Shown here piece by piece: positions 9,104 to 60,633 of a stretch of DNA of 64,000 nucleotides (position 1 is its first letter; the number at the start of each line of letters is the position of its first letter). Under the pieces are notes generated by a model. It had not been told where the DNA came from. It saw nothing but the letters and a program-made list of their open reading frames with translations, and did not search any database. Location of the stretch: NCBI RefSeq assembly GCF_016026235.1, contig NZ_CP065613.1. The stretch is one strand, 5' to 3'. This stretch comes from Escherichia coli (GTDB lineage: Bacteria; Pseudomonadota; Gammaproteobacteria; Enterobacterales; Enterobacteriaceae). Made by a program: the position numbers and the translations under genes.

Positions 9104-10705
9104 TCAGGATACCACTGGCGCAATTTGTAACTGCGCCGACTCATGTCGTGCTACTTCATGTTCTTCAAGGGTAAATACCGCCACACGCGACGAAAGATGG
9201 TCGGCCTGATTCGCCAGTTGTTCCGTTGCCACCGCCGCTTCTTCTACCAGCGAGGCGTTCTGCTGAGTCACCTGATCCATCTGGCTGACAGCCTGTGCAA
9301 CCTGCTCAATCCCCCGCTGTTGTTCTTCCGACGCAGAGGCAATTTCTCCCATAATGTCGTTCACGCGGGTCACCGAACTGACAATATCGATCATGGTCGC
9401 GGCGGCGTTATTCACCAGTTTCGAACCCTGCTGGACACGATTGACTGACTCTTCGATCAGCCCTTTGATCTCTTTTGCTGCCTGCGCGCTACGGCTGGCA
9501 AGATTGCGCACTTCACCTGCCACTACCGCAAAACCACGCCCCTGCTCTCCGGCGCGAGCCGCTTCCACTGCCGCATTCAGGGCCAGAATATTGGTCTGGA
9601 AAGCAATTCCGTCGATAACGCTGATAATGTCGCCAATTTTTTGCGAGCTGGTGGCGATCTCCTGCATGGTGTGAGTCATGGTACTGACCTGAACACCGCC
9701 CGCCTGCGCCGTTGTCGCGGCATTTTTTGCCAGTTCCGACGCCTGTCGTGCGTTATCGGCGTTTTGCCCTACCGTGGCGGTTAATTGCTCCATACTGGCG
9801 GCCGTTTGTGCCAGCGATGCCGCCTGCTGTTCGGTACGACTTGAGAGATCGTTATTGCCTGCGACAATCTCCGCGATACCAATGTGCATCTCCTGGCTTC
9901 CCTTACGCACATCACTTACCGTCCCACGCAAAGCCTGCTGCATGGTCTTCAGACTGGCAAAAATGGCGGTGATCTCATTACGACCATATACCGCAATCGG
10001 ACGCGCCAGATTACCCGCAGCAATGCTGTCAAAATGGCTACCAATAATGGCCAGTGGTTGAACAATCATCTTGCGCGTCCACCACAGCGCACTGCTGATG
10101 TAGATTGCCGCAACAATAATCATGCTGATAAACACCAGCGCCGAAATCTGATAGTTACGCTGACTTTGCGCACTGGCGGCTTCCAGCACATGGTTGATCT
10201 CCAGCTGCCAGGCCTCAAAGTTAACGTCAAACGCATTCTGTGATCCCTGCACCGGCGCAGTGAGGAAATCCGAAAGTTGATTACTTTCAAGCCAGGTCGC
10301 CTGATGTTCGAGATCGTTGTGCCAGCGGGCAAAACTTTTCTCCGTCTCTTTTTGCAATGCCCTGACGTGCTCGTTGCCCGCAGTCATCGCCATAAAACTT
10401 TTAAACAGCGTGGTGGATTGCGTCAGACTGGCGCGCACCGTCGTCATCAACGTTTTAATGTCATCCGCCGGATAGCTAAGTGCCGTCAGAGTGCCCGCTT
10501 TGTTCAGCGCGGTACTGGCCTGTAACATTACCGCCCGAGTTTGCGCTAATGCCGCACGTTGCTGATTGCTCTGCTCGACCTGATTCAGTCGTTGCAAATC
10601 GTCGCGAAATGCCCAAAAAGACATGCCGTTACTGCCAATCTGCAAGATCCCGCAGAGAATCAAAATTAAAAACAGCGTGGTCGAAATTCGAATACGATTA
10701 AACAT
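9104..10705 (-). CDS. tap: Methyl-accepting chemotaxis protein IV Tap (dipeptide/pyrimidine chemoreceptor)
   Basis: Matches Tap from MFNRIRISTTLF (second Met of the ORF); HAMP and conserved MCP signalling domain present. Confidence 0.94.
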   Translation of the reverse strand: MFNRIRISTTLFLILILCGILQIGSNGMSFWAFRDDLQRLNQVEQSNQQRAALAQTRAVMLQASTALNKAGTLTALSYPADDIKTLMTTVRASLTQSTTLFKSFMAMTAGNEHVRALQKETEKSFARWHNDLEHQATWLESNQLSDFLTAPVQGSQNAFDVNFEAWQLEINHVLEAASAQSQRNYQISALVFISMIIVAAIYISSALWWTRKMIVQPLAIIGSHFDSIAAGNLARPIAVYGRNEITAIFASLKTMQQALRGTVSDVRKGSQEMHIGIAEIVAGNNDLSSRTEQQAASLAQTAASMEQLTATVGQNADNARQASELAKNAATTAQAGGVQVSTMTHTMQEIATSSQKIGDIISVIDGIAFQTNILALNAAVEAARAGEQGRGFAVVAGEVRNLASRSAQAAKEIKGLIEESVNRVQQGSKLVNNAAATMIDIVSSVTRVNDIMGEIASASEEQQRGIEQVAQAVSQMDQVTQQNASLVEEAAVATEQLANQADHLSSRVAVFTLEEHEVARHESAQLQIAPVVS

Positions 10706-10750: not shown

Positions 10751-12412
10751 TCAAAATGTTTCCCAGTTTGGATCTTGTTCAGCAATTCGCAGTCGTGGCT
10801 GTGCCGGTGGTTGCTCACTGGCAGGACGGGATGGTGTTTGCGGTTTATTGGTGAGTGGGCTGGCTGCCAGACGGAACGCGGAAACCGCTTGCGTTAAACG
10901 ACTCGCCTGTTCTTCCAGCGCAGCGGCGGCGGCAGCTGATTCCTGCACCAGCGATGCGTTCTGTTGCGTGACGCGATCCATTTCCGAAACCGCCAATGCG
11001 ACTTGATCGATGCCACGGCTCTGTTCATCCGATGCCGATGCAATCTCGCCCATAATGTCAGTCACGCGAGTGACAGCATTGACGATATTGTTCATTGTTT
11101 CCCCGGCGCTTTCGACCAGCACCGAACCGGTATCAACGCGTGCGACGGAGTCTTCAATGAGGGCTTTGATCTCTTTTGCCGCTTGGGCGCTGCGACTGGC
11201 AAGATTACGCACTTCACCCGCCACCACGGCAAAACCACGGCCCTGTTCACCCGCACGCGCGGCTTCAACCGCGGCATTCAGCGCGAGGATATTAGTCTGG
11301 AAGGCAATACCGTCGATAACGCTGATAATGTCGGCAATTTTCTTCGAACTATCGGCGATCTCATGCATCGTTTTCACTACGCCATCCACCACTTTGCCGC
11401 CGTGCTGGGCGGTGTCGGAGGCACTTTGCGCCAGTTGCGAGGCCTGGCGGGCGTTATCGGCGTTTTGCTTCACTGTCGCGGTGAGCTGCTCCATGCTGGC
11501 GGCAGTTTCTTCCAGCGCGGATGCCTGCTGTTCAGTACGGGAGGAAAGATCGGTGTTGCCCGCCGCAATTTCACGGGTACCGGCATAGATGGCATCTGAA
11601 CCTTCGCGGACATGAGTGACGGTGTCAGTCAAAGAGCGTTGCATATGTGAAACGCTCTGCGCCAGGTCGCCCATTTCACTGCGCCCGTCAATGGTCAGGG
11701 TATTCGCCAGGTTACCACCGGCGATTTCGCGAATGTGAGCAATAATTTTTGCCAGCGGAGTAAGCAACATACGGCGAATGCCGTACCACGCCACCAGCAG
11801 AATCAATACCACCACCAGCGCGATAACCGCCAGTTGCCACTGGGCAAATCGGTAATCATCTGCGTTGTCAGTGACGATATCGCGATACAGTTTTTCACTG
11901 CTGAGGGCGTACTGAGCAAACGCTTCGCCCATTGCATTTTGCATTCCCTGGGTTGGCTGAGCGAAATAAGCTCCAGTATTGCCATAATCTAGATAATCAA
12001 TCAGTTCAGTTAACGCTGTGTAATAGTTTTTATATTTTTCATCAATATTACGACTGGTAGCGACCATTTCAGGTAACGGTGCCATGCTTTTGAATTTTTT
12101 ATAATGCGTCGCTGCCTGCGCCAATGTTTTCCTGGCGCTATCGAGCAATTCAACTTTGGCGTTACTTTGTTGATTGGAGGAATCCATCATCATCCGCACC
12201 GCTGAACGACTCAGGTTAATGCGCGTTTGCAGCATTAAATCCCAGGTTGACGTCAGCTCGCCCTGCTGTTCCCGTAATTGATTGGAAACCACAAAGCTCT
12301 TCTGGCTATGGTGAAGGGAAGAAAAAAACAGACTGCCGGAAATAAGCTGTAACAGTGCGAATACCCCCAGCACCATTACCAACAGCGTGACTACGCGGAT
12401 ACGGTTAATCAT
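10751..12412 (-). CDS. tar: Methyl-accepting chemotaxis protein II Tar (aspartate/maltose chemoreceptor), 553 aa
   Basis: Matches Tar from [23 protein letters not shown]-terminal NWETF pentapeptide present. Start ATG at 12410-12412. Confidence 0.94.
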
Positions 12413-31197: not shown

Positions 31198-31863
31198 TTA
31201 ATGCAGGCAGCACTGCTTAAATTTCTTACCACTACCGCACGGGCAAGGATCGTTACGCCCCGGTTTCTCTTCTGCTTTGATCGGTTGCTGAACAGCTTTT
31301 TCCTGCGGATGCGCCATCCAGTACGCATGTAGATCAAGCGCCGCCAGTCGAATGGCATCTACGCTCTCTTCAAACGCTTCTGGCGACATTTTCTCTACCC
31401 GCTCGAAGTTTTCCTCAGTACCGTGCAGCGCAATCGCCTCCAGCGCTGGTTTTAACGAATCGGGCAACGTTGACCAGTCAGAAAGTGCCACGCCCCGCAT
31501 ATAGCCAAAGCACCACTCCTCAACAATCGTCAGCTCGCTGCCATCAACTTCTCGCAAGCCGAATAACGGCTCAAACTGCTCCGGGAATTCGTTCAGACGC
31601 TCTGCGGTATCGGCCATATGTTGAAAAGCCAGGTTCATAAAGCGCGTCATCTCTTTCTCTGACGCCCAGCGCGGCACATAGTCAGCCCCACCCCACACGG
31701 CAACCAGCCACTGTGCCGGTTCAATCTCTTGCGGAGAACTCAACACCGCCGTCAATAAACCGTCCAGCTCCGCCACATCAAGGATGGCGTGGTCAGTGTT
31801 GTATTTGGTCAGAATATCGTCCAGCCATTCCAACTCACTTTCGTTTAACGGTCCCGTTTTCAT
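31198..31863 (-). CDS. yecA: UPF0149/SEC-C-motif protein YecA (221 aa)
   Basis: Full-length match; C-terminal metal-binding SEC-C motif [20 protein letters not shown]. Confidence 0.93.
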
Positions 31864-32002
31864 ACGCTTTTCCTTGTGGATCTCAACTCGCCAGCACCTA
31901 TCTTACATGCCGGTCCGTATCAGAGATACTTTTTGAGTGGCTTTGCCGGTGATTAAAAATTAAGGAGGGTGTAACGACAAGTTGCAGGCACAAAAAAACC
32001 AC

Positions 32003-32114
32003 CCGAAGGTGGTTTCACGACACTGCTTATTGCTTTGATTTTATTCTTATCTTTCCCATGGTACCCGGAGCGGGACTTGAACCCGCACAGCGCGAACGCC
32101 GAGGGATTTTAAAT
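32003..32114. repeat. Left direct repeat of the island: terminator-like hairpin plus 56 nt copy of the tRNA-Leu 3' end (32059..32114), att-like
   Basis: About 95% identical to 60482..60601 (the 3' part of intact leuZ and its downstream terminator); tRNA identity is lost after ...GAGGGATTTTAAAT at 32114. Confidence 0.85.
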
Positions 32115-34053: not shown

Positions 34054-36396
34054 TGTTCTTATTACCTTTAACTAATTATGCCAATTCAGACTCAAACGCT
34101 GCATCATTCGCTTCAGCCTCTGCGCCATCAATTAATGCCAAGACTCGGTCAAGAAAGCGTTGCGCTTCGTATACATCTGTTGCTTGCCGCAGATAATGAG
34201 GTATTCGTTCAACAAACTCGGAACGTGATAAAGGCTGATGTTCCAGCAAAGCCTCAAGCATTGCGGGCCGCAACAAACGACGATCAGCATCAACATTAGG
34301 AAGCTCAACCTCAATGACATGTGTGGCAAAATACTTAAGTTGCTCCTTAAGCCCCAAATTGGGCATAAGAGAATCAATTGAGTCAGACGCCACTTCAGCG
34401 CTTGACTCAATCGTTTCGACATATTCACAGGAAGGTACAACAACGTCTGGAGCCAATGTTTTAAGCTCATGGAGTTTACGGATAATCGGAGATAGAACCT
34501 CATCAGGATTACTGAACCAATCAGTGGACCAAATGCGGCTAATTCTCCAACCCAAACGCTCCAGAACCTCTTGACGCAAACGGTCACGATCACGAGCAGA
34601 TTTAGCTGAGTGATAAGCCGCACCATCACACTCTATGCCCATTAAGTAACGGCCAGGACAACCTGGATCTTTCACAGCTAGATCAATAAAGAATCCTGCA
34701 ACCCCTACCTGAGGTTCACACTCAAACCCAGCGTGATTGAGTGCTTCCATTACAGCAACCTCAAAGTCACTATCTGGAGCCCTGCCGGTATGCGTTGTGA
34801 GGGAATCTAGTTTGCCACTTTCGGCAAACTGTAAAAAACCTTTCAACGAAATAACACCAAGTTTACTGGTTTCACTCGTCAATACATCTTCAGAACGCAT
34901 TGAACTAAACACATGCATCCGTTTTTTTGATCGAGTGAAAAGCACATTCAAGCGACGCCAGCCAACATCGGAATTGATAGGTCCAAAGCGTTGATAAACC
35001 TTTCCACCATGCTCAGAAGGTCCATAGGTAAAGGAAATAAAGATTACATCACGCTCATCCCCTTGAACGTTCTCAAGGTTTTTCACAAAAAGTGGCTCTT
35101 CCATGGCATATAAGCCATCGATTGCATCGTTAAATTCAGGGCGATTTCGGCGCAATTCATCGATAGCGCGCTCAATTTGATCGCGTTGCTTGGAACTCAT
35201 GGCCACTACCCCGAGTGACTCACCCGGCCGGTGTTGCGCATGATGAAGTACGGCCTCAGCAACTGCTTGGGCTTCTTCAATATTGTGTTGATTGGAGAAC
35301 CGACCTTTTGACACATAGGTAAATTTAATCCCATACTCTGGAGACTCAGCATTTGGGGAAGGGAATATCACCAAATCACTGTTATAAAAATGGCGGTTAG
35401 AGTATGCAATCAACTTTTCATGTCGTGAACGATAGTGCCAACGCAAACGTCTCATAGGAAACAGTGGCAAAGCAGCATCCAAAATGCTGTCAGTATCACT
35501 TAAAGCCGCGGCATCATCGTCATCTTCTCCGTCGGCACTTCGATCAAAGAAACTGGTTGGTGGTAGCTGTTTCGGGTCACCAACGACCACTAGTTGCTTG
35601 CCCCTCGCGATGACACCCAATGCATCCTCTGGCTTCACCTGAGACGCTTCGTCCATCACCACCAGATCAAATTCCATTCGTCCAGGTTCTAGGTAATGAG
35701 CTGCTGACATTGGCCCCATCATGAAACAAGGTTTAATTGCAACCAGCGCATTACATGCACGGTTAACCAATTGCCTAATTGGAATATGTCTGGTTTTTTT
35801 ACCCAACTCATTTTTGATCAAAGCTAGTTCTGTATATTCACTTTTCTTACCACCAGAATTCCCTTCTGGTATATTTCGGTAAGCAATTTTTGCTGCAATC
35901 CGCTGACGTTGTAATTCAATCAGTTTTTTGTCGTAATCTTTAAATGACTTCTGCAAAGCATTGCGCTGTGAGCCGGAAACTCTCATCAATTCAGGGTGGA
36001 TGTGAATAACCTCCCGCGCCAGCTGGTCATGAATTGCTAATGCTAAACCCAATTCAACTTTTTCAATCGGGAGCGAGCCCGCAAGTACAGCACTCCAGAT
36101 TCGCTGCAATCCATTTTCATGCATCTGCTCGTAACAACGAATAAAGTTAACCCACCCGTTCAACCAACGGGGTTGCTGTATTGCTCTTTCGTTGCGCTCG
36201 ATTAATGTATTAAGAGAACCATCAGTCGACTTGAGCCACTGACTCCGCTCTAACTTTGTTTCTAGCGCATATAACTCAGCATTTTTAATCTGTTCATTCC
36301 ATTTCGAAACTATTTCCCCACCATCACGACATAGTAAATCGGGTGATGCTGCCAACTTACTGATTTAGTGTATGATGGTGTTTTTGAGGTGCTCCA

Positions 36397-36672
36397 GTGG
36401 CTTCTGTTTCTATCAGCTGTCCCTCCTGTTCAGCTACTGACGGGGTGGTGCGTAACGGCAAAAGCACCGCCGGACATCAGCGCTATCTCTGCTCTCACTG
36501 CCGTAAAACATGGCAACTGCAGTTCACTTACACCGCTTCTCAACCCGGTACGCACCAGAAAATCATTGATATGGCCATGAATGGCGTTGGATGCCGGGCA
36601 ACTGCCCGCATTATGGGCGTTGGCCTCAACACGATTTTACGTCACTTAAAAAACTCAGGCCGCAGTCGGTAA
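36397..36672 (+). CDS. insA: IS1 protein InsA
   Basis: [43 protein letters not shown]... matches InsA. Confidence 0.9.
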
Positions 36673-37094
36673 CCTCGCGCATACAGCCGGGCAGTGACGT
36701 CATCGTCTGCGCGGAAATGGACGAACAGTGGGGCTATGTCGGGGCTAAATCGCGCCAGCGCTGGCTGTTTTACGCGTATGACAGTCTCCGGAAGACGGTT
36801 GTTGCGCACGTATTCGGTGAACGCACTATGGCGACGCTGGGGCGTCTTATGAGCCTGCTGTCACCCTTTGACGTGGTGATATGGATGACGGATGGCTGGC
36901 CGCTGTATGAATCCCGCCTGAAGGGAAAGCTGCACGTAATCAGCAAGCGATATACGCAGCGAATTGAGCGGCATAACCTGAATCTGAGGCAGCACCTGGC
37001 ACGGCTGGGACGGAAGTCGCTGTCGTTCTCAAAATCGGTGGAGCTGCATGACAAAGTCATCGGGCATTATCTGAACATAAAACACTATCAATAA
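36591..37094 (+). CDS. insB: IS1 transposase InsB reading frame (expressed as InsAB by -1 frameshift)
   Basis: ORF matches InsB (...[21 protein letters not shown]...); overlaps insA in the -1 frame. Confidence 0.85.
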
Positions 37095-40000
37095 GTTGGA
37101 GTCATTACCAGTAAATCGTAATCACTACCACTAGCCAAATGTCTGATCTGGGTAGCCAAGGATACGCAATTTATCTTATCAACCAGTTGCTCGGCAAAAT
37201 TCAGCGTGTCGTTAATAGTGTCTAACGTCAGTTGATTATTTTTATACGCACCGCAAGCCAATGGGGTTAATTGTAAAAACGCCCCTAACTGTAACGAGTC
37301 ATTTTCAAGGGATATCTGAAGATCGTTTATGTTTTGCAAAATCTCGGAGGAATGAGTCATCTGCTCTAATGATATATCTGGATTGATAAACCATCCCTGC
37401 AAGGCAATGAGAGTATTCCGCACCTGTCGGTAAGATTGCATCAATACACCTTGCTCACCTAACCAAGATGCATGTTCTTCCAACAAGCTAGAAATACGCG
37501 GTAATAACTTAGCCTCGTGCTCGACCCGTTTAACCAAAGTCATTAATCTTGAGCTAATCTGCGATTTCTCGATTAAATGCACACCTTTGATAATCTCACC
37601 ATCTAGGTTAATTAATCCAGAGCCTATCGCAACTCGCTTTCCAAAACCTATCCCGTAACAAGCTCGGACCTTCTTGTACCAATCACGCAATAACATGAGT
37701 TGTTCACAGTCGGTGTCCAACCCTCGGAATGCATTACCAAGTTGATTACCAAAGTCACTTTGTTCAAACCGTTGTAACAGCTCCGAATACTTGAGCAAAT
37801 CAGCTGAGCAGCGTTTTAACTCAGCAAACTTAGTGTCAGGCTTACGAGATTGCGCCATGAGCAGTGCCTTGGCACTACGCCAATCACTCTTAAACCATGC
37901 AAATAATCCCCCTTGCTGGATAACAGCAACGGCATGCGCGAGCATCTCTTGGGAAGGCAACTGGTCCAATTGATACAAAGTAGATAGACCATCTCTTAAA
38001 GGACGCAATGTTTCGATTTGACACATTAAGTCGCGCAATACTGCATCGATATCATCATCATCAAAAAGAGGATCTCGAACTCTAATAAGCTCAGTCGGTA
38101 AAGCACCCAGAATCGACAACAACTCAGAGCAGAATAGCAATCCAGCTTGCGAATCATCGATATACGAAGCAATACCATCTGGCAAAGCATTTTTGAAATC
38201 GTTTAATTGCGCATAAATAGATGATAACTCATCATGAATTGATTGGATGGATTCAAGCCACCTGACCAAATCACGTAAAGTGAAATCCTCTGCTGCACCA
38301 TATTTTTCCAGCTCTTCACGAGGAAAGTCACACGATTGTCCTTGTTCTAAAAGTCGTAGCTTTTGAGGCTCGATAACCTGGCTCAAGGCCACATAATGAC
38401 CTTGTAGCAACTCGAACCTATCTAAATAGTGACGCACCCGTGCAATGGCATCGAGTGAATCTAGCTCACTAAGTGCTGGGAAATGCTCTGAACCACACAA
38501 CACTGGAAGATTCGACTGATCTTCTACCAATTGCTCAATATATTGAAGCGTATTAAGGCTTTCGCCTTCTAACGCCCACTTATCTACATATTCTTGATAG
38601 CTATGTTGAAAGTCGATAATTGATGTCTGCCAAGTTTGTAGCAAATCGACTATACGAGCGCTGTCAAACAATTGAATTTGTGTGTTATTCACACCGCTCC
38701 AAGGGTGCTCATATATTTCTGCATTAGCCCCCACCTGCTCACGAACCTCTTTGTAGATGCGGCTAAACTCTACTATTTGGTCACGCAGCCGTAATTGGGT
38801 CACTTTATCCAACTGCTTCCCGGAAAGGTTTTCGATATGAAGTGCTGTTGCATCAATATCTAATTTGTGACGATAACGTGTTGCACCACTCAAAATCTGA
38901 TGGATCGTTTTGCCTGTTTGCGCCCATTGGTTATTGATCAATGCGGCATATTCATTGAGCTGCTGCTTAAGATCTTCATAACGCAAAATCTGAGCATCAA
39001 TCTCTTCCATAGTAGGCATGGTCGCCTGACTCACCAAGCGAGCATTAATATCATCCAGCACCTTGCGCTTATGAGTTTTATGACTGTGCAACTCTAAGCA
39101 AAATTGACCTAGCCCCGCACGATCCAAGCGACGTTTGACGACCTCCAGTGCAGCCATCTTCTCTGCCACAAACAGGACTTTCTTACCGTTGAGCAGAGCT
39201 GCTGCAATCAAGTTGGTGATCGTTTGTGATTTGCCACTACCAGGAGGGCCCTCAATGACTAAGTTTTGACCACGGATAGCATCGATCAACGCACTGTGCT
39301 GCGAGCTATCCGCATCATCGATTAGTGGAACCTTGTCATGAATATCAGGGTAACTATCGATGCAGTACTCATGCTGACCGAAGCCACCAGGTAAGCCGGA
39401 ATTCTCTTGACCACAGCTCTGACTGGTGAAAAAGCGACGAATTACTTCATGAGACAATATATTGCGCTTGTCACAAGGCCAGCGGGCAGGATCGAGGTCA
39501 AGATACATCATCATCTTGCCAAAATTGAGCAAGCTAAGTGCACCATAACGTTTCACAGACCATTTAGGTTTGTGCTGCTCTACAACCTTCTTCACCGAAG
39601 CAAAATAAGACTCTGGAGTTTCCTCTTCATTGAACAAAGGAAGAGCGAGGCCAAAGTCAGCCTGAAGTTTTTCCTTCAAAGAGAGATTGGGCAAAATATC
39701 TTCACCCGTGTAATAAAGTTGAAACTTGTAAAGACCATCCTTCGGATCTAATTTTCCTCGTTCACATCTCACCGGAATTGTAAATAACGGTGCATAACGT
39801 GCCTTTTCAGAGGAATCGCTTTCATACCACTCAAGGAACCCTAACGCCAAATACAAGATGTTGGCGCCACTCTCCTCCAAAGCAGTTTGAGCCTTACCAT
39901 AGATGGCGCGCAAACAAGCTTCCAGTTCATTTGGATAAAGCAGAGCCTGTATCCGATTATCGTCATGAGAGGAATTGGAAGAAGATATACTAATCTCATT

Positions 40001-40774
40001 CCCAGCCTTTGCCTGTCGTTCAAAATCCTCAAGCCCTTCATAGCCTGCTAAGCAGCACGCCTCCTTCAACGCTGACAAAGCTATACCTTGATTAACGTAT
40101 TCAGAACGAATCCCTGTTAATTTTCCATTCTGGCCTTGGGCATATTGCAAGATAAACTGATGGGCTTTTTCCAGCAACTCTCTATCTGAATCAGAAACAA
40201 CCGTTTTATGGCTATCTGGTAAATCAAAATCTGTACGGATTCCTAAGACGTGCGCCCAATCCTTAGCGCTAGGATGAGCTCTTAACTGTATATCTTTACC
40301 ATCTGGCCCAACTTTGAGATAGCCATGCTCTAACAGCTGCGCTCTAGTTGGATCGGGCACAGGAGCAAATTCCATCGGGATTTCCGAGCAAAGGGTTTCA
40401 TAAAGCTGTTCTGGTAATTCATCAACAATACGTAGTGAAGACCCTTTTTGAGTGATAGGGAAATTCAAAAGTCGATTTCGAGACGTAAGGTCCAATAACT
40501 TCTTACGCATAGCCTCGAGGGAAGTCAGAATAAAATCTGAGCCTCCTTGATTGAGTTCCTCTGCTGTAGAGGTATCTACAGTCGACATAATGTTCTCCAT
40601 TTCTTAGGGTCCACAAGTAAAACGTTTTATGCTGATGCATCACAAAAAGACCGCAGTAAACTGCTGCAAAGAAGAGGAGATTTTTAGTCTCCCCTTCTTT
40701 ATCAATCAGATCATACAATCAACTTAACGCCCATTAGTTGATAGCAGCCAAATTTCATAAACAGATTCAATCCG

Positions 40775-42817
40775 TTATTGCTGAATTTGATTGGATAGTA
40801 AGACCTGCAACATATCTTGTTGATGCTCAGCTATCTCATCTTCCAGCCAACGACCTTTATCTTTCATCAGCCGAATCATAGCAAGCAATTTAAGACTATC
40901 AGTCTGGTTATTGGCAAGGCTTGCTTCAAAGTGCTCCTGCTTCTGTTGCGGCTGGAAGTTACTCAAGCGCGAGTTCTTGCTGTGGCTGATAAGGCAAAGG
41001 TTGCCAAACGAATGGAGTGCACTCTGCTCAACCGGTTTATAGCCATCCATCGGATGCTGGGGTGAGAAGTGCTCCACCGAGCTGCGGAAAGTGAACTCAA
41101 AGGAGCCAGCAACTTTGTCGCTATTCCGATCTCGTACCCACAGCAGATAGTCGAGGAAGTTGAAGACAAAGTTGTTCTCGATATGACCGAAGCGAAGTTT
41201 GGATGTAATCACCTTGTGCCAACTCTCATCCACATTGATGGCGGGCAACAGGGCGTTATCAAGGTAGAGCATCTGGTAATAGGAAGCCCCTTCACCAGGC
41301 GCCAAAAAGCGCTGGAAGACAAAGCGGCGAGCCTGACTCTCCAGATAGGACAGATAAGCCCCGGCATCCACCGGTTGATCAGGGTGACAATTGTCGAACA
41401 GATATCTCAGTGCACCATTCAGCCAATGTTTGTAAACCAGGGTCGGGGTCGACACATGAAACGCCGACAGCAACATCAGGACCCGCCGGTTAACACCAGA
41501 GAAACCATTCTCATTTTCATCCTTGTCAAAGGTATTGATGTAACTGACGCTCTTTTCCGAATACCAGTGCAGCCGCTTCAGACTCCAACTATCCTTGCCA
41601 TCGGCAAACTCGCGCTTGATGATGAACTGATCAAACAGATACTTGCTCTTTAACAGGCCATAGATAAAACGCTGAACTGCCGCTACTGGATCCGGTTGCC
41701 TTATCACTCGCAGCTCAAACTGATCGACCAGTTGTTTATCATCAAGCGGCACCCCCTCCGTATCACCCGGGTCGCGGCTCACGAGTCGCAGCACATGGAG
41801 CAAGAAGTTGGAGAAGTTGATGACGCTGTTAAAGCGCTCGGAGCCTGCGCTCTCCTCCTCCACCGTCTGCTCACCATCAAGCTTGTCATCCTGCAAAATG
41901 GCCAACAAGGTGCGCCCTTGGCTACCGGCAGCTGCACGGCTTTTATCGGCAGCGTCGGCCGTGTTTGGGGATCCTAGCAGTTCAAGCAGATGGGCAAAAT
42001 CACGGGGCACAAACTGACCCCAGTCGCTCTCACCAAACAGACGGTGGCGCTCTTGCGGGGTAAAGCCGTACTGGATATAGCGCTCCATATTGGCGCAGGC
42101 ATCCCATACCCGAGTCAGGATATGAATACTTTGGCGACGATGCTCTTCCTCGGGTATCTGGTTCAGCGTCTCCATCAGCCGCGCCTTGATCACTTCATGC
42201 TTTTCCAACTGCTCGCCGCGATTGTTCATCGCCTCGAAGAAGTGATTGAGATCGGTATCCTTGGGTACTTCGATACGAGAGATCTGCACATGCTTGAAGA
42301 GGTAGTCGCAAAAGGCCGTCAGTTTAGCCCCTACCAAACCAAGATCCGCCATTGCCTTGCCAATCAGCTCAAAACCGTTCACCAAACCTTCATTGAAGGT
42401 ACTCCCCCGCAAATCGTAGGGGGCAACACCCTGCCATAAGCGCTCGAAGGTATGGCTCGATATCGGGCGACTCTCAAAAGCGAGGTTGATGGTCTGATAC
42501 CAGCTCATATCCACCGAATCTATCGCGTGATGTTTGAGCCAATTGGCCAGCAGAGAGAGGGTAGTAAAGCGCTGCTGGCCATCGATTACCTCGAAACTGC
42601 CATCGTCCCGGGCAAACACCACCAGGGTGCCGATATAGTAGGTTTGCGGCCCCTTACCACTGACCAATTTTTGCTGATAATCCAGCACATCCTGCAGCAG
42701 CTGGGTGATCTCTCCCTCACCCCAGGCATAGTTGCGCTGGTACATGGGCACCAGATAGCGGGCGCGATCTTCAAGCAGTGCACGAATGGAAAAGGGGCGA
42801 ACGCCTGCATCATTCAT
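40775..42817 (-). CDS. DUF262 + DUF1524 (HNH-like) protein, GmrSD-family type IV restriction-like (680 aa)
   Basis: N-terminal DUF262 motifs ([26 protein letters not shown]) and C-terminal HNH-type block ([19 protein letters not shown]). GC-rich compared with the AT-rich island cargo. Confidence 0.75.
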
Positions 42818-44264
42818 AATATTTCATCTCCCGAAACAGCCCGACCAGCTCATCTTCGGCACCATTGCGATTGTTCTTGTTCTCTCGACTGCTCATGCTA
42901 GGCAAAGGGAAGCCGTGCAGATCTCCCGGCAGACGAGCATCACGAATGGCACGGATCAGATTGTGCTCCAGCACATAGTTATCCATGGTTGCCAACTGCA
43001 CTACCTGCTGGCGGATGCGGCAGCGATAGGCCCAGATAAAGCACTTCTCGATGGCCAGTGACAGCCCTTGGCTGCCGAACTTGTCGATATAGAAGATCAG
43101 TGCGCAGTCGAACATGGCCCGCACATAACGATCCCCGGTGCGGTGGCGACGCTCGTAGCTGCCCAGGGTCGATAGCACCTTGCTGGCCATCGGTGTCAGC
43201 GTTTCGCCGAGCAGGGTGGCAGATTGCGCCTTGCCGGAATCAGACTCCTCGGCCACGATGGCGGCCACCCGCGTCTGGTAGTACTCGGCCATCTCGAAAA
43301 AGCGCCGACCATTGATGATCATCTGGTCGAGATGAAAGGGAAACGTCATGTACTGGCCGTCAATCTTGCGCTGGTACTGGCGGTTGTACTCATCGACAAA
43401 GTGGTGGGCGATGCGCAGCGACTCCACGTAAGGATAATGCCCTACCCGATCTAGGTTGACCCCCTTGAAGAGATCCACCTCCCCCTTGCCAAAGTAGCGG
43501 GCCGACTTGCCCTCGGCCCACTGGCGTACCCGATAGAGATAGAGGGCGAACAGATTGGCCAGCTCGTCGCTTGGCAGGCGCTCCCAATGGGCGACCGCCT
43601 CGGCCTTGAGATTGGCCTCATGACCGGCAAACTCGCGCAGGTGAAATGCCTTGAGCAGATCGTGAGGAGCCAGATCGCGCCCCCGGGCATTTTGCGAATC
43701 GAAGAACTGGAACGCCTCCGAGATATCCTGCAGTACAAAGCAGACCACCTGACAGCGGTTGAGCAGAAAGTCAATTTGCTGCTCGTCAAACTCAGGGCGG
43801 GCCACCAGCCGACGCAACTCCAGATAGTTGCGTCTGAGGTTGAACTCCGAATCCCGGCTGGGGAAGCGCTGGCGCTGCATAAACGCATCGATAGGTCCAC
43901 GCAAGACCTGCAATTGCTCACGCAGATCCTGACGTTGAAACCGGATACTCTTCTCTTTGCCACTGCGATTTTCGTTATCCAGCACCTCGATCAGCGCCTT
44001 GACGGTCAACATCAGGGTCAGGGTGCGTTGCTGACCATCGACGATATCAAGCATCTCGCCCTGCTCACTATCGGTGTGCTGATGAAACACCACCGAGCCC
44101 AGCCGGTAGGCGCTCTTGTCCTGATGGGTTGCCAAATCGGTAAAGAGATCCGAGATATTCTTGGAGCCCCAGCGGTAAGGTCGCTGATAGCTTGGGATGG
44201 CCAGTTGGGGAATGGCCAGCAACTGGCGTACCGACTGCACTTGATTATTAATGCTCTCCATCAT
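42810..44264 (-). CDS. DUF262 (ParB-like nuclease/NTPase domain) protein (484 aa), partner of the downstream DUF262-DUF1524 gene
   Basis: Motifs [17 protein letters not shown] and [12 protein letters not shown]; 3' end overlaps the downstream gene start by 8 nt. Confidence 0.7.
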
Positions 44265-44276
44265 GCCTCCTGCGGT

Positions 44277-44887
<611 letters not shown>

Positions 44888-49007: not shown

Positions 49008-49691
49008 TCAATGCAGACAGCACTTCTTAAATTTTTTACCGCTGCCACACGGACACGGGTCATTTCGCCCGGGCATGTTTTCTGCCCCCTTCACTGGAAC
49101 AGGCCGGGATGATGCCTCTGACATTCTCACCGACAACCAGTGCTGGTAAAGCGCCAGTGCCGCAGGCTGAATGAGAGTAATACTCTGTTCAAATTGAACA
49201 GGTGACATTTTCTCAACCACTGGGAAGTTCTTTTCGATACCATGAAGGGCTATCGCCTCCAGCGAGGGACGTAAGGCCTCTGGCAAGGCTGACCAGTCAT
49301 CCAGAGACCGGCCTTTCATATACCCGAAACACCACTCTTCGACGATTGTATATGTCTTCCCCTTCACCTCACGTCCATTGAAAATCGGTTCAAACTGTTC
49401 AGGGGCCTCATACAGGCAGCCAGCGATATCGTTCATATGCTGAAAACACAGCCCCACAAAACGCGTCATCTCTTTTTCAGTGGTCCAGTGAGGGTAGTAG
49501 TCACCTCGCCCCCAGATAGCACTAAGCCAGGTATTAGGGGGGATCATATTCGGGCCAGAGACAATCGCTGTCAGAAAGCCATCCAGCTCAGAGAAACAGA
49601 GCACAGAGTCATCATTGCCGTATTTCAGCAACACCTCTTCCAGCCAGTCGATTTCCCGGTCAATCAGCGGCCCGCTTTTCGTCAGTTTCAT
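49008..49691 (-). CDS. YecA-family (UPF0149) SEC-C-motif protein paralog embedded in the type I R-M operon (227 aa)
   Basis: Aligns along its length with chromosomal YecA (31198..31863), including the C-terminal [20 protein letters not shown]; start ATG overlaps the hsdS stop (ATGA). Confidence 0.85.
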
Positions 49692-55642: not shown

Positions 55643-56779
55643 ATGCCTATTCTGGATCTGCGTTTCAGCAACAAATCAATTCACCAACTTCCACATCCCC
55701 TCACGGGTTGTCAGGAATACCGTGATATTCACTGCCAAAACCTGCGTGCTCTGGTGTATCCCAATCGGATCACGCTGGCCTTTCGTGCCACTATAAACAA
55801 TCAGCGTATATATGAAACCCTGGGTCAGTTCCCTCAGCTCTGCGTTGAGGATGCCCGTCAGCATGTGATGAAACTGCTTGCTGATAAAAATCGTCTTGCG
55901 GTTCAGTCCCGTCGATTCACTGTGGAACAGGCCATCAATGACCTGTGGCTACCGGATTTGCAGTTGTATAAAAAGAGTCCTCAGTCAGAGTTGTCAAAAC
56001 TCAACCTCTACGTTCGCCCGTTCTGGGGCAAGCGGCAACTTCGCGACATCACGGCAGGAGAACTAGAACAATATGCTGCTGGCTTACGGGAAAAATTACG
56101 TCCGTCAACAGTAAACCGTATCCTCGCAATATTGTCCAAAATATGCTCTCTGGCAGTACGTGCTGGATGGATCACACATTCCCCGATGTCACATGTCCGC
56201 TATCTGAAAGAAAATAACATTCGCTATCGCACACTGTCAGCGACAGAAATCCCGCGCTTTATTGACGCGGCAACAGCGCTGCAAACACCGGCAGCTGATT
56301 CTATATTGCTTGCTCTTTATACGGGGATGCGTATTGGTGAGGTATGTACCCTGAAATGGGAGTACTGGCACCCGGATATGCATCAACTCATACTGCCTGA
56401 TACAAAGTCCGGACACCCTTTCACCTGCCCACTTGCACCTCCAGCCATTGCAGTTGTCCAGTGCCAGCAGGACCTGATGCTCAGCAAAACTTACATTTTT
56501 CCACAACTAACCGACAATGCCCGCCCTCTGGCATATCCGCGTGCAACCTTTGCCCGTATTTGCCGGGATGCCGACATTGATAACCTGCGGATGCATGACC
56601 TGCGCCGTACCTTTGCCACCCGGGTACTACAGGCGACCGGGGATATTGCAATCGCTTCCCATCTGCTAAATCACCATTCACTCACGGCGACCCGTCGCTA
56701 CGCTTTTCACAATGCAGCGACATCACACGCAGTGGTTTCTCAGGTCATAGAAAGTTATGACACAAAAATGAACCTATGA
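55643..56779 (+). CDS. int: Tyrosine recombinase / phage-type integrase (378 aa)
   Basis: C-terminal catalytic motifs (MRIGEVCTLKW, HDLRRTFATRVL, LNHHSLTATRRYAFH) and an N-terminal arm-type region (FSNKSIHQLP). Confidence 0.85.
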   Translation: MPILDLRFSNKSIHQLPHPLTGCQEYRDIHCQNLRALVYPNRITLAFRATINNQRIYETLGQFPQLCVEDARQHVMKLLADKNRLAVQSRRFTVEQAINDLWLPDLQLYKKSPQSELSKLNLYVRPFWGKRQLRDITAGELEQYAAGLREKLRPSTVNRILAILSKICSLAVRAGWITHSPMSHVRYLKENNIRYRTLSATEIPRFIDAATALQTPAADSILLALYTGMRIGEVCTLKWEYWHPDMHQLILPDTKSGHPFTCPLAPPAIAVVQCQQDLMLSKTYIFPQLTDNARPLAYPRATFARICRDADIDNLRMHDLRRTFATRVLQATGDIAIASHLLNHHSLTATRRYAFHNAATSHAVVSQVIESYDTKMNL

Positions 56780-56921
56780 TCTGTGATTCGTGATTGATGC
56801 AACACTCGTTTAAGGACGGTATTGTCATTGCATGCTTCTGCAGGGCCCTGCATTAAGTCATCACAGAATGTGGATTGATATTAAATCCGCGTGGCTTCTT
56901 ATTCTCTGAAACCGGAGGTTT

Positions 56922-57050
56922 ATGTATTTAACCATTAAGCAGTTCGCAGAAAGATTTAATCTTTCTGCATCCACGGTTGCGTCAGATATATCGCGCAACC
57001 CCGGAAAACTCCCGCCCTTCATCAGAATTGGGCGGGCTATACGATTCTCT
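56922..57050 (+). pseudogene. AlpA-family helix-turn-helix regulator/excisionase-like gene truncated by IS1
   Basis: MYLTIKQFAERFNLSASTVASDISRNPGKLPPFIRIGRAIRF resembles AlpA-type HTH proteins; the reading frame runs into the IS1 terminal repeat at 57051. Confidence 0.6.
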
Positions 57051-57818
57051 GGTAATGACTCCAACTTACTGATAGTGTTTTATGTTCAGATAATGCCCGA
57101 TGACCTTGTCATGCAGCTCCACCGATTTTGAGAACGACAGTGACTTCCGTCCCAGCCTTGCCAGATGTTGTCTCAGATTCAGATTATGTCGCTCAATGCG
57201 CTGAGTGTAACGCTTGCTGATAACGTGCAGCTTTCCCTTCAGGCGTGATTCATACAGCGGCCAGCCATCCGTCATCCATACCACGACCTCAAAGGCCGAC
57301 AGCAGGCTCAGAAGACGCTCCAGTGTGGCCAGAGTGCGTTCACCGAAGACGTGCGCCACAACCGTCCTCCGTATCCTGTCATACGCGTAAAACAGCCAGC
57401 GCTGACGTGATTTAGCACCGACGTAGCCCCACTGTTCGTCCATTTCAGCGCAGACAATCACATCACTGCCCGGTTGTATGCGCGAGGTTACCGACTGCGG
57501 CCTGAGTTTTTTAAGTGACGTAAAACCGTGTTGAGGCCAACGCCCATAATGCGTGCACTGGCGCGACATCCGACGCCATTCATGGCCATATCAATGATTT
57601 TCTGGTGCGTACCGGGCTGAGAGGCGGTGTAAGTGAACTGTAGTTGCCATGTTTTACGGCAATGAGAGCAGAGATAGCGCTGATGTCCGGCAGTGCTTTT
57701 GCCGTTACGCACCACGCCTTCAGTAGCGGAGCAGGAAGGACATCTGATGGAAATGGAAGCCACGCAAGCACCTTAAAATCACCATCATACACTAAATCAG
57801 TAAGTTGGCAGCATTACC
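57051..57818 (-). mobile_element. IS1 (768 bp), divergent isoform, no target site duplication
   Basis: Terminal repeats GGTAATGACTCCAACTTA (57051..) and GGTAATGCTGCCAACTTACTG (reverse complement at 57818); insA 57488..57763 and insB 57066..57569 differ at several residues from the IS1 copy at 36342. Flanking 9-mers differ (CGATTCTCT vs CATCTTCAA). Confidence 0.9.
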
Positions 57819-57935
57819 CATCTTCAAATGGGAGTACCAGCTCTGTTTTCAACAGACTCATTACTGACTCCGGAAGAAGGAGCGACGGCAGGTCTTGCCA
57901 GTTCGAGACAAATTTCATTGAATAATCCTCATAAA

Positions 57936-57972
57936 CAAAAAACCCGATACGATTAACGTATCGGGGTTTTTA
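57936..57972. terminator. Bidirectional rho-independent terminator
   Basis: Hairpin CCCGATACG-ATTAA-CGTATCGGG flanked by A-run and T-run. Confidence 0.6.
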
Positions 57973-58013
57973 TACATCCGCATAACTATTATTTACAGTT
58001 ATTGGTTTTCTAT

Positions 58014-58256
58014 TTAAATTCTTTCATAATACCCACAGTCCATACAGATAAGCACTGGCGCATTATTTCTTTCACACTGTTCAAGGAATCCAAATAGTTT
58101 TTTAATAGCCTTAATAATTTCTTTCAGTATTTCAGGTAAAAACTCCAGGCTAATATACCCAGAGCGTTTATTATCGGTTATCGATGGCAGTTTTCCTGCT
58201 GAACTTATCAATGTATTACAACTGCCACACTGTGGGCATTTTAAATGCATCCTCAT
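58014..58256 (-). CDS. Small zinc-ribbon protein (80 aa), AT-rich
   Basis: Two CxxC pairs (CPQCGSC ... CMDCGYY). Confidence 0.5.
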   Translation of the reverse strand: MRMHLKCPQCGSCNTLISSAGKLPSITDNKRSGYISLEFLPEILKEIIKAIKKLFGFLEQCERNNAPVLICMDCGYYERI

Positions 58257-58286
58257 TCTCCATATTTATAGTTTGCTAAAAAGTAG

Positions 58287-59516
58287 TCACATCTGCTTCG
58301 TAGCCGCAGTATTCAGAAGCAGGTCAGTCACTCCCTGCCCTGTCTGACGCATACGTTCCGGTGTTAATTTCGCGTAACGTTCTGTACTCTGAATACTGGC
58401 ATGCGCCAGTTGGGCTTTAACGTCATACAGGCTGAATTGACCACTCGAAACCAGTAAAGAGGCAACAGAATGACGTGTGGTGTGAAAACAGACTTCATTC
58501 TTGTCTATACCGCACTGTGCCAGTATTTTTTCATATGCCCATCGGGGTTCCGATATCGGTTTTCCATTATCCTTAATGGCGAACAGATACGGATTACTGC
58601 CAACTCGTGGGATAGCATCAATAATCGATAATGCGGCATCGCTTAGATATACCGTCCGACTGCGACCATTTTTTGTATAAGGAATGAACAGAGTACGATT
58701 GGCCCGGTCGATATGTTCATGCCTGACATTAAGCATTTCTGATTTGCGTGTACCGGTTAACAACAACATGGCTATCAATCCCCCGGCAGCTTTGTTGGGA
58801 TATTGGGTAGCAGCGTCAAGAATGCGCCTGATCTCATCAGCATCAAAAAAGCGCGTCCGCTGATTATTCTCTTTCAGTAAAGGGATCTTATCGGCTTCAT
58901 TCTTTTCCAGCACATCCTGTCGCAACGCATAACGCCCCATCGTTTTCAGAATAGCAAGGGCTCTGTTACAGGTAGACGGCGCATATTGCTGCCCGTGAAT
59001 ACGCCCCTCCAGCATGTCAAACAGCACCTGTTGTATCTCTCTGGCCCTGAGATCGCAGTAACGTATCTTTCCCAGACGAGGTTCAATGTATTGCGTGAAA
59101 CGCTGAACATCCTTATCCCAGGACTTTTTATGGCGTTTGATGAACGGAACATAGGTCTGGTGAAAAAACTCACTAAGTGTTGGCATCGCACGATAATTAT
59201 CGCGTTCTGCTTTAGGGTCATTTCCCAGTGCAATCGCCTCCTTATGACGGCGAGCTATCTGGCGAGCTGTCCCCACATCAATTTCAGGGAATCTGCCAAT
59301 ACTGATACTTTTTTTGGTACCGTGGAATGTGTAGCGCAGGAGGAAACGTTTGTTACCCGTTCGACCTGAGAGACATTTGAGGCCAATAACTTCGGTATCA
59401 GATACCTCAAGCTCTGTAGATCTGGTATCTGTGTTTGCCGGAAGGGCTTTGATGGATGAATTGGTGAATCGGAAGGATTTTTGCATATTTATCCTCATGT
59501 ATCTGATTGATATCAT
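58287..59516 (-). CDS. int: Tyrosine recombinase / P4-type integrase (about 400 aa; start may be a downstream Met)
   Basis: Arm-type N-terminus (FRFTNSSIKALP), catalytic motifs (LLLTGTRKSEMLNVRHEHI, HTTRHSVASLL, STERYAKL); located close to the tRNA-Leu end of the island. Confidence 0.85.
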   Translation of the reverse strand: MISIRYMRINMQKSFRFTNSSIKALPANTDTRSTELEVSDTEVIGLKCLSGRTGNKRFLLRYTFHGTKKSISIGRFPEIDVGTARQIARRHKEAIALGNDPKAERDNYRAMPTLSEFFHQTYVPFIKRHKKSWDKDVQRFTQYIEPRLGKIRYCDLRAREIQQVLFDMLEGRIHGQQYAPSTCNRALAILKTMGRYALRQDVLEKNEADKIPLLKENNQRTRFFDADEIRRILDAATQYPNKAAGGLIAMLLLTGTRKSEMLNVRHEHIDRANRTLFIPYTKNGRSRTVYLSDAALSIIDAIPRVGSNPYLFAIKDNGKPISEPRWAYEKILAQCGIDKNEVCFHTTRHSVASLLVSSGQFSLYDVKAQLAHASIQSTERYAKLTPERMRQTGQGVTDLLLNTAATKQM

Positions 59517-59566
59517 GGAGATAATATATATCTGAAGGTGTTTTTATTACGGGGCAGGATTGAAGA

Positions 59567-60307
59567 ATGGAAAAGCTATTAGACGCGTACAAACGGATAT
59601 TACAGGAAGTTGACGCCCAGTCATTTAACCTGAATGAGGATAAATACTCAGGCGTCTTTTTACCCGTGCCCTTTGAAGAATACTGGCACTCACCGGTAAA
59701 AATCATACTGGTTGGACGTGAAACCGCTGGCTGGAATACTCTGAATGGTAAGAACACGATATCACGGGTGCTGGGACTTATACCTGACGTCACCATCGGG
59801 CAGGTGGTTGGAGAGGCTGTAGATCGTTACAGGAATCATCTTCCGGTACAAAATGATGGCACCACGAACCTCAAATCACGTAGCCGCTTCACGCAGTATC
59901 ATTTCCGGCTGGCCCGGGAGCTTAATATTCCTCCTCAGGCTATCGTGTATGCCAATCTACTGGCGTGGGATTACGACGGACTGACCCCTCTCAATCGCCC
60001 TCAAAATGAAGTGCAGGAAGTTATATTAGCCTCGCTGAAGCTGCTGGCGGTACAAATTAAACACCTTGAGCCTGATTTCATCATCTTTGCATCCGGAGCC
60101 CGGAGAACAGACTACATCATAAAACAGGTGCTTACTGAGCTGGGCGGCTATGAGACTTCTGCAGTCATTCCGGGGAAGCTATGGGAGTTCAAAACAGGTA
60201 ATGCAATCTGTTTCAGAATTGCCCATCCACGGGCTATGCGCGGACACCAGAAGTACAGAGATGAGGTGATTGCACGAATTAAGCAACTTTGTACTCAGGG
60301 TGGCTAG
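59567..60307 (+). CDS. Hypothetical protein (246 aa) between integrase and leuZ
   Basis: Long ORF with RBS-like sequence; no confident family assignment from sequence alone. Confidence 0.55.
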   Translation: MEKLLDAYKRILQEVDAQSFNLNEDKYSGVFLPVPFEEYWHSPVKIILVGRETAGWNTLNGKNTISRVLGLIPDVTIGQVVGEAVDRYRNHLPVQNDGTTNLKSRSRFTQYHFRLARELNIPPQAIVYANLLAWDYDGLTPLNRPQNEVQEVILASLKLLAVQIKHLEPDFIIFASGARRTDYIIKQVLTELGGYETSAVIPGKLWEFKTGNAICFRIAHPRAMRGHQKYRDEVIARIKQLCTQGG

Positions 60308-60481
60308 AGCATTACAGCTTGCTCAGCGGCCCCCTTCCCGGAAGCGTACCGGAAAACAGGCAAAGCGGCCTGGTTCTCTATGCTGGAAGCGACACGTTCG
60401 ATTCGGCATTGCCAGGCTGAAGATTGCAGCTCATCGCACCCCGTGAGCACAGGATATGCACAGGACATGAATTTCAGGCAC

Positions 60482-60601
60482 AAAAAAACCACCCGGAGGT
60501 GGTTTCACGACACTGCTTATTGCTTTGATTATTCTTGTCTTTCCCATGGTACCCGGAGCGGGACTTGAACCCGCACAGCGCGAACGCCGAGGGATTTTAA
60601 A
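60482..60601. repeat. Right direct repeat of the island (leuZ 3' part plus downstream terminator hairpin)
   Basis: About 95% identical to 32003..32114. Confidence 0.85.
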
Positions 60602-60633
60602 TCCCTTGTGTCTACCGATTCCACCATCCGGGC
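60547..60633 (-). tRNA. leuZ: tRNA-Leu (anticodon UAA)
   Basis: Reverse complement reads GCCCGGATGGTGGAATCGGTAGACACAAGGGATTTAAAATCCCTCGGCGTTCGCGCTGTGCGGGTTCAAGTCCCGCTCCGGGTACCA. Confidence 0.95.

Follow-up and report, generated by a model that had tools for sequence, protein, structure and literature searches.

Base-excision defence against phages has so far been shown for three proteins with the fold of uracil-DNA glycosylases (UDGs). The source was uncultured soil DNA for two of them and an integron for the third; Escherichia coli is the native host of none. Brig1 is an alpha-glucosyl-5-hydroxymethylcytosine DNA glycosylase (PMC11078745), and Brig3 is a 5-hydroxymethylcytosine DNA glycosylase (10.64898/2026.02.25.707755). 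Brig2 is a UDG-like glycosylase found in integrons that acts against thymidine-hypermodified Pseudomonas phages (10.1101/2025.10.29.685425). Here we analyze a 246-residue protein encoded next to leuZ, the gene for tRNA-Leu(TAA), in the glyW-cysT-leuZ-pgsA-uvrC-uvrY region of an E. coli chromosome. The stretch of DNA analyzed, referred to as the window, is 64,000 nt long (contig NZ_CP065613.1, assembly GCF_016026235.1), and nucleotide positions given below without a locus name are those of this window. The gene, found in the list of open reading frames (ORFs) at 59567-60307 on the + strand, is a candidate for an antiviral DNA glycosylase of the UDG superfamily.

Members of the family of this protein occur commonly in E. 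coli and in Enterobacterales associated with plants and humans. If the protein is active, E. coli would possess a glycosylase defence of its own, open to direct testing with the coliphage collections that already exist. More of the base modifications of phages would then be known as targets, and the finding would bear on the choice of modified-DNA phages for therapy. If it were instead a repair enzyme, the finding would be an ordinary one.

Fold and candidate active-site residues

An initial annotation of the window had pointed to two strings in this protein, namely VGRETAGWN and IAHPRAMRG, and had noted, as a weak resemblance, that they recall the two catalytic motifs of the UDG superfamily. 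Both strings are present, at residues 49-57 and 218-226, respectively. Searches with the single sequence gave no match in Pfam (even at E<=10), NCBIfam, PADLOC or the PDB, and a profile of the close family, comprising 35 sequences, likewise gave no match in the PDB. A structural model of the protein was created with AlphaFold2 on the basis of 35 homologues (pLDDT 90.9, pTM 0.90). The model shows the four-stranded parallel beta-sheet of the alpha/beta fold that is common to UDG families 1-6, and the UDG superfamily accounts for 50 of the 50 matches listed in a Foldseek comparison with the PDB, the best being 4ZBY (E=2.3e-5); the TM-scores to the structures of family 4/5 UDGs are only 0.47-0.58. 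Among the 50 neighbours listed in AFDB50, all but a few carry the automatic name "Uracil-DNA glycosylase-like domain-containing protein". The layout of the model is also that of UDGs: a strand at residues 46-50 leads into GRETAGW, a second one at 126-130 ends in N130, and a third one at 213-218 precedes AHPRA.

A word-indexed search identified 179 homologues with 50-98% identity, from Enterobacterales, Pseudoalteromonas, Marinobacter and Stutzerimonas. A profile search of 1.84 billion representative proteins then extended the family to 467 clusters at 50% identity (E<=1e-3), in which all organism-named members belong to the Pseudomonadota or Campylobacterota, and mostly to the Gammaproteobacteria. 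From this search we derived profile A3, which consists of 60 members down to 22% identity and is the only profile to reach a UDG. Profile A3 matches the family-4 UDG of S. tokodaii (4zbx) at E=2.1e-5. In the main stretch of this alignment, N130 falls on N82, the Asn that reads uracil, and H220-P221-R-A falls on HPAA of motif B; in a second stretch, which is not significant, V-G50-R-E52-T-x-G-W falls on V-G-E-A-P-G-E-N of motif A. The Pfam UDG model (PF03167) matches the 60 relatives weakly (27/60 at E<=0.1 and 5/60 at E<=0.001, the best at 9.7e-6), and the E. coli protein itself does not match it.

Within the 60-member family, G50, S156 and F208 are invariant (60/60), while E52, W206, R217, H220 and P221 are each conserved in 59/60; conservation is slightly lower for W56 and N130 (58/60 each) and for F108 (57/60). 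With these positions near-invariant across the family, the motifs are no chance occurrence; the resemblance to UDGs is thus real, and both motifs had been correctly picked. Two findings had been named beforehand as grounds for dropping the idea, i.e., a predicted fold unrelated to UDGs or homologues with another established function; neither was encountered. We are thus all but certain that the protein has the fold of the UDG superfamily.

Motif A, G50-R-E52-T-A-G-W56, is encoded at 59714-59734, N130 at 59954-59956, and motif B, H220-P221-R222, at 60224-60232, all on the + strand. Motif A of UNG reads GQDPY and has the catalytic Asp at position +2; MUG, SMUG1 and Brig1 have Asn at this position. 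Judged from the sequence, E52 is the acid at +2 of motif A, i.e., it stands in the position of the UNG catalytic Asp. About 50 residues separate motif A from the conserved F108. We consider it likely that the protein is catalytically active as a glycosylase.

Distribution, genomic neighbourhoods and candidate functions

Of 5426 complete E. coli genomes, 539 (~10%) carry the gene, and its coverage reaches 80% or more in 520 of these. All copies in E. coli are chromosomal and annotated as "hypothetical protein". Among plasmids, 14 carry the gene or more distant relatives, with 24-62% identity. Relative to diverged alleles, the UDG-like gene has a ratio of non-synonymous to synonymous substitution rates (dN/dS) of 0.13-0.19, which denotes purifying selection; the value for the adjacent integrase gene is 0.045, so that the UDG-like gene is about four times more relaxed.

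About 9 of 13 independent neighbourhoods of the gene are rich in defence genes or are cassette arrays. In Proteus, the UDG-like gene is directly followed by Mrr, a type IV restriction endonuclease, and by a type I restriction-modification (RM) system. In Pectobacterium brasiliense and Intestinirhabdus it adjoins the Mrr-like PDC-S02 and PDC-S26, together with NERD+UvrD in Intestinirhabdus. In Marinobacter it lies between ZacABC and a HIT gene with PDC-S36, and in Serratia a WYL/BrxR-type regulator and ThsB are found nearby. On a conjugative plasmid of Kosakonia, the gene is flanked by insertion sequences (IS) and is near PifA and VapBC; on a Polaromonas plasmid, it adjoins a UvrD/GajB-like helicase gene; and in Stutzerimonas balearica, it is part of an integron cassette array. 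The context in P. aroidearum is uninformative, as are those on a Vibrio plasmid and in Atlantibacter.

Two recurring arrangements were observed in these neighbourhoods. In both Pectobacterium and Intestinirhabdus, a block of three genes stands beside the UDG-like gene (L002:7148-10156 and L022:9606-12614), encoding a 393-residue Mrr_cat/NA-iREase1 protein, a PDDEXK_4 protein of about 380 residues (PDC-S26) and a 163-residue protein; its recurrence points to a mobile defence cluster of greater extent. Marinobacter and Stutzerimonas have a conserved protein of 109 residues, encoded immediately upstream of the UDG-like gene (L005:5672-6001 and L008:6657-6986). The two versions of this protein are 57% identical, and in Stutzerimonas its gene overlaps the start of the UDG-like gene. 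In one protein of the family, P0148, the 109-residue domain is fused N-terminally to the UDG-like domain (BLASTP E=2e-13), and other members of 337-365 residues (among proteins P0146, P0183, P0187 and P0199) have N-terminal extensions of similar length. The domain has no match in Pfam or PADLOC and is absent from the E. coli gene. The 109-residue protein may be an accessory factor of the UDG-like protein.

On the strength of the fold and the conserved active site, of purifying selection, of a distribution that is mobile and patchy, and of neighbourhoods with defence genes, and given the precedents of Brig1, Brig2 and Brig3, we favour the view that the 246-residue protein is a stand-alone, Brig-type antiviral DNA glycosylase. 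We deem a role of its gene in defence probable to the same degree. A function of this kind, i.e., defence against phages with modified bases, had been raised in the initial annotation, and it fits both the genomic contexts and the Brig precedents.

In the mechanism we propose, the protein would scan DNA and flip a non-canonical pyrimidine into its pocket. There, F108 would stack on the flipped base and N130 would read its Watson-Crick edge, while E52 would activate the water that cleaves the N-glycosidic bond, and H220 would stabilize the leaving base. An Arg in the HPRAxR loop would probably occupy the space vacated in the helix. The abasic sites so formed would block the replication of phage DNA bearing the modified base, and host DNA, which would not contain the target base, would be spared; for this same reason, no immunity partner would be needed.

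The residue that reads the base edge may also hint at the substrate. The N204D variant of UNG gains cytosine-excising activity. In the enzymes directed at cytosine derivatives, the reader is a Glu in Brig1 (E147; PMC11078745) and an Asp in Brig3 (D127; 10.64898/2026.02.25.707755). Because the corresponding residue here is Asn130, and enzymes that excise uracil or thymine likewise have Asn as the reader, we tentatively propose a target of the uracil or thymine type, namely deoxyuridine (dU), 5-hydroxymethyluracil (5hmU) or a 5-substituted or hypermodified uracil or thymine. A broader proposal, in which we place somewhat less trust still, is that the family is a fourth, sequence-distinct family of antiviral proteins in the UDG superfamily ('Brig4'). 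In that case, its active site would be a UNG-like Glu/Asn/His site without the aromatic gate at the 5-position. It would restrict phages that have dU, 5hmU or hypermodified uracils in place of thymine, e.g., the Ackermannviridae-type 5-NeOmdU phages of Enterobacterales. The gene could then be a 'moron' carried next to the attachment (att) site of leuZ islands and in integron cassettes, and the domain of ~110 residues found in some lineages could widen the substrate range, as BapA does for Brig3.

Several observations weigh against an antiviral glycosylase. Many of the E. coli copies are truncated pseudogenes (one sub-lineage has a 5'-truncated pseudogene beside an IS3-family element), and the contexts in Atlantibacter and on the Vibrio plasmid contain no defence genes. 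Motif A, GRETxG, differs from that of every characterized UDG family, and catalysis is therefore not assured. The proposed class of substrates, tentative as it is, follows from the analogy of one residue. No PADLOC 2023 model matches the protein, so that previous screens for defence genes and predictions of candidates did not pick it up. Finally, Getz et al. report a phenotype for one of seven integron UDG-like proteins, i.e., Brig2 (10.1101/2025.10.29.685425). Because only one in seven gave a phenotype, fold and context are no guarantee of measurable defence.

Among the other explanations, the one that survives best is a horizontally carried repair glycosylase, that is, a back-up enzyme for uracil or mismatches that removes deaminated or oxidized pyrimidines from the DNA of the host or the element and has no role in immunity. 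We regard this as unlikely. A repair function is difficult to reconcile with a gene that is found in so small a share of E. coli genomes, where it is often pseudogenized, and that always resides on accessory DNA, be it an island tip, an integron cassette, a plasmid or a variable hotspot beside restriction and defence genes. E. coli, moreover, already has Ung and Mug. The excess of dN/dS over that of the integrase gene fits arms-race-type divergence better than housekeeping. Repair is nonetheless the function of the closest relatives of known structure (family 4/5 UDGs, SMUG1 and MUG/TDG), and the constellation of Asn, His and acid is like that of uracil-excising enzymes; neighbourhoods devoid of defence genes are compatible with it as well. 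In addition, Brig1 and Brig3 themselves retain residual activity on uracil (PMC11078745; 10.64898/2026.02.25.707755).

Slightly less probable again is a protein that has kept the UDG fold while its chemistry was lost or changed, and that still serves the mobile element, whether as a DNA-binding sensor or processivity-type factor, as a covalent cross-linker like UdgX, or as a glycosidic enzyme acting on something other than DNA. The positions of UDG chemistry, i.e., the acid at +2 of motif A, the Asn of beta2 and the His-Pro of motif B, are near-invariant, which argues against such a loss, as does the fact that the E. coli protein is a single compact domain without a partner. The cross-link formed by UdgX involves a His in a loop specific to that family.

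The leuZ island and its other genes

The window contains a 28.4-kb island (32115-60471) bounded by direct repeats of 133 nt. The tRNA-proximal att repeat, at 60472-60602, contains the terminator of leuZ (about 60483-60506) together with the 3' half of the tRNA gene as far as the anticodon loop. It was detected as direct repeats D4 and D5 and is 97-99% identical to the distal att repeat at 31982-32114, where a partial leuZ' and a terminator adjoin yecA. The intact leuZ gene (60547-60633, - strand; ARAGORN and Rfam tRNA) is the integration target; beyond it follow the genes for tRNA-Cys and tRNA-Gly, and then pgsA, uvrC and uvrY. The UDG-like gene is transcribed divergently from the integrase gene, towards leuZ, and is the last gene of the island, located between the integrase gene and the att core and inside the att repeats. 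That is, it is cargo at the attachment-site tip of the island, outside the integration machinery.

The P4-type tyrosine integrase of the island is encoded at 58287-59516 on the - strand (Pfam, NCBIfam, PHROG and the annotation in locus L001). The ORF has 409 codons; with the start chosen by PGAP, 30 nt downstream, the product has 399 residues. Its three Pfam domains are those expected, namely Arm-DNA-bind_3 (PF13356), Phage_int_M (PF22022) and Phage_integrase (PF00589). The protein thus combines the N-terminal arm-DNA-binding domain and the C-terminal recombinase domain of P4-type (arm-binding) integrases, and its gene adjoins the duplicated 3' half of a tRNA gene. In this respect the initial annotation was right, and the ORF list and ARAGORN also place the integrase, a zinc-ribbon ORF and the divergent 246-residue ORF near leuZ where it had put them.

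The zinc-ribbon-like ORF, downstream of the integrase gene at 58014-58256 (- strand; ORF list), had been described as an 80-residue protein with two CxxC pairs. The pairs are indeed there (CPQC at residues 7-10 and CMDC at residues 72-75); the length probably needs correction, to 78 residues. A GGAG ribosome-binding site lies upstream of M3 (58250), which is likely to be the true start. In a diverged allele (integrase dS 0.56), the 78-residue ORF is still open, retains both CxxC pairs and the GGAG site, and differs by an in-frame indel of 15 nt. For these reasons, it is probably a real gene. The ORF is assigned to phrog_32727 and is left uncalled in the PGAP annotation of NZ_CP025840; just 25 homologues were found, nearly all in E. 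coli and the rest in Shimwellia. Within it, at an A6 run at 58085-58100, the database versions P0136, P0140 and P0142 change frame and thereby acquire a different, 79-residue C-terminus and lose the second CxxC; this could reflect a slippage-prone site, pseudogenization or a sequencing error. The transcription unit of the integrase and the 78-residue ORF is closed by a bidirectional, terminator-like hairpin (57943-57965; terminator scan), which is kept in the diverged allele. In Rfam, a CopA-like match at 57933-58002 is below threshold, and a promoter scan gave signals at or below the shuffled background and is uninformative.

The three genes had also been taken for a mini-module, and this description is not supported. 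In every non-E. coli genome examined, the UDG-like gene occurs without the integrase and without the zinc-ribbon ORF. Because the zinc-ribbon ORF, essentially confined to E. coli, never accompanies the UDG-like gene outside this species, the trio is a conserved island end and not a functional system. Its supposed left boundary, 57819, is merely the edge of an IS1 insertion or deletion. The notion that the UDG-like protein, the zinc-ribbon protein or both assist the integrase, as a factor for directionality, excision or the att site, is very improbable. In its favour, the trio is invariably contiguous in E. coli, and the UDG-like gene sits between integrase and att core, diverges together with the integrase and travels with the leuZ' core even to other loci. 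Against it, the UDG-like gene has neither integrase nor tRNA beside it in Pectobacterium, Proteus, Marinobacter, Serratia, the integron and the plasmids, its copy at leuZ in Atlantibacter lacks an integrase, the zinc-ribbon ORF is too narrowly distributed, and the conserved glycosylase-type active site would be left unexplained.

The history of the gene can be traced in related genomes. The UDG-like genes of Intestinirhabdus and Pseudescherichia have the terminator and leuZ' half known from E. coli within about 100 nt of their 3' ends, with no intact tRNA gene. This is the arrangement expected in attP, and the UDG-like gene is therefore a gene of the element rather than of the chromosome. In Intestinirhabdus, the leuZ' core is joined to sequence known from the distal end of the E. 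coli island, at a locus other than leuZ. In Atlantibacter, the UDG-like gene is next to leuZ without an integrase, which we read as a decayed island. That the gene is instead an ancestral chromosomal neighbour of leuZ, as the Atlantibacter locus might suggest, was rejected because of its placement inside the att repeats in E. coli and of the non-leuZ junction of Intestinirhabdus. An origin of the gene in phages was likewise rejected, as tblastn gave 0 matches in 50,697 phage genomes. PHROGs does contain a family for the 246-residue protein, phrog_29550, which we presume to derive from predicted prophage regions. In the titles and abstracts of the literature on leuZ islands, we found nothing on the UDG-like gene; the END-nuclease system, also considered from the literature, is unrelated to the 246-residue protein.

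Between the UDG-like gene and the leuZ terminator is a non-coding spacer of ~160 nt (60310-60471; 57% GC), which is conserved as well as coding sequence between two E. coli alleles and Atlantibacter and is absent, according to the alignment, from Intestinirhabdus and Pseudescherichia. An Rfam search of the spacer gave no RNA family. It could contain integrase arm-type sites of attP or encode an unannotated small RNA.

The remaining cargo of the island consists of an IS110 transposase gene, an Hhe gene split by IS1, two DUF262/GmrSD-like genes, a type I RM system with a YecA-like PDC-S12, and a second integrase gene. An IS1 copy at 57066-57763 (- strand; InsA/InsB ORFs 57066-57569 and 57488-57763) shares a 300-nt repeat with 44512-44811. 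Compared with the intact island of locus L001, the IS1 event removed the island interior beside the integrase end and truncated the neighbouring gene. At 55643-57131, the gene for the second tyrosine integrase (378 residues, + strand) is followed by a short ORF for an AlpA-like helix-turn-helix protein, which runs into IS1. In strain 214-4, the same pair precedes a gene for an 866-residue protein and further genes that are missing in the present strain. The leuZ island thus looks composite and partly deleted by IS1.

Hhe, an anti-phage DUF4011 helicase, is represented by two ORFs (37088-40600 and 34076-36355, within 34076-40600) separated by an IS1-type ORF of 167 codons (36591-37094); because of this split, Hhe is probably inactivated in the present strain. 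At 40775-44264, two neighbouring ORFs, with 680 and 484 codons, overlap each other; both have N-terminal DUF262/GmrSD-like domains (PADLOC HEC-06, Orf5, SspE), and they may be a type IV, modification-dependent restriction pair. The YecA-family paralogue (PADLOC PDC-S12; 49008-49691) is embedded between hsdR and hsdS of the type I RM system, and the chromosomal yecA (31198-31863) lies just outside the distal att repeat. Elsewhere in the window, two diverged direct repeats (9234-9880 and 10935-11581; 300 nt at 72% and 185 nt at 74% identity, 1701 nt apart) probably mark tandem paralogous genes.

Comparison with described UDGs and Brig proteins

On its motifs, the 246-residue protein is a member of none of the described UDG families. 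The family-4 enzymes (S. tokodaii 4ZBX/4ZBY; T. maritima TM0511, 1L9G) have GE(A/G)PG in motif A, where the present family has GRETxGW; in the weak stretch of the alignment, R51 stands opposite the family-4 Glu and E52 opposite Ala. Family 4/5 enzymes carry a 4Fe-4S cluster held by four cysteines, whereas the E. coli protein has only two, C215 (kept in 50/60 members) and C242 (not conserved), and thus no such cluster. The settings differ as well: family 4/5 UDGs are core repair genes, whereas the present gene is mobile and patchily distributed. With UNG (family 1) and SMUG1 (family 3), in turn, the protein shares an acidic or polar residue of catalytic type at +2 of motif A, an Asn for the uracil edge, and a motif B that starts with His-Pro. 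In the wedge region of SMUG1, an Arg follows HP, as in the HPR found here.

Like Brig1, the protein is encoded by a single gene, belongs to the UDG superfamily, has about 250-260 residues and is found in defence islands (PMC11078745). In both cases the best structural relative is the family-4 UDG of S. tokodaii, motif A is followed by a long insert, and the proposed mechanism is the same, i.e., the creation of abasic sites in modified phage DNA. Membership in the Brig1 family was nevertheless rejected. With the Brig1 sequence taken from the supplement of PMC11078745, hhalign gave probabilities of 0.25% (profile A1) and 0.11% (profile A3), which amounts to no detectable sequence similarity, and Brig1 is not among the top 50 Foldseek matches of the protein in the PDB. 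Brig1 has a GLNPG motif and a pocket formed by E147 and Y121, whereas the present protein has GRETxG and Asn130. Brig1 has 42 homologues, mostly from Actinobacteria, compared with the 467 clusters of the present family.

The likeness to Brig2 lies in a UDG-like fold encoded in integrons, near mobile elements and defence systems; the predicted class of targets, uracil or thymine derivatives, would also match that of Brig2. The 21 Brig2 homologues with full 20-kb windows in that source imply genes of about 466-634 bp (155-211 residues), whereas the gene here has 741 bp (about 245 residues), and the Brig2 homologues described there span Bacillota and Bacteroidota. Judged indirectly, from gene length and taxonomy, Brig2 probably represents a different family.

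Brig3 acts together with a partner, BapA, encoded downstream; no such partner accompanies the E. coli gene. In their linear layout, however, the two proteins are alike: motif A is near residue 50, an aromatic cage near 100, the catalytic residue of beta2 near 127 and the insertion loop near 225. It is the residues described at these positions that set them apart, namely N50, D127 and N225 in Brig3, and E52, N130 and the H220-P-R loop in the present protein.

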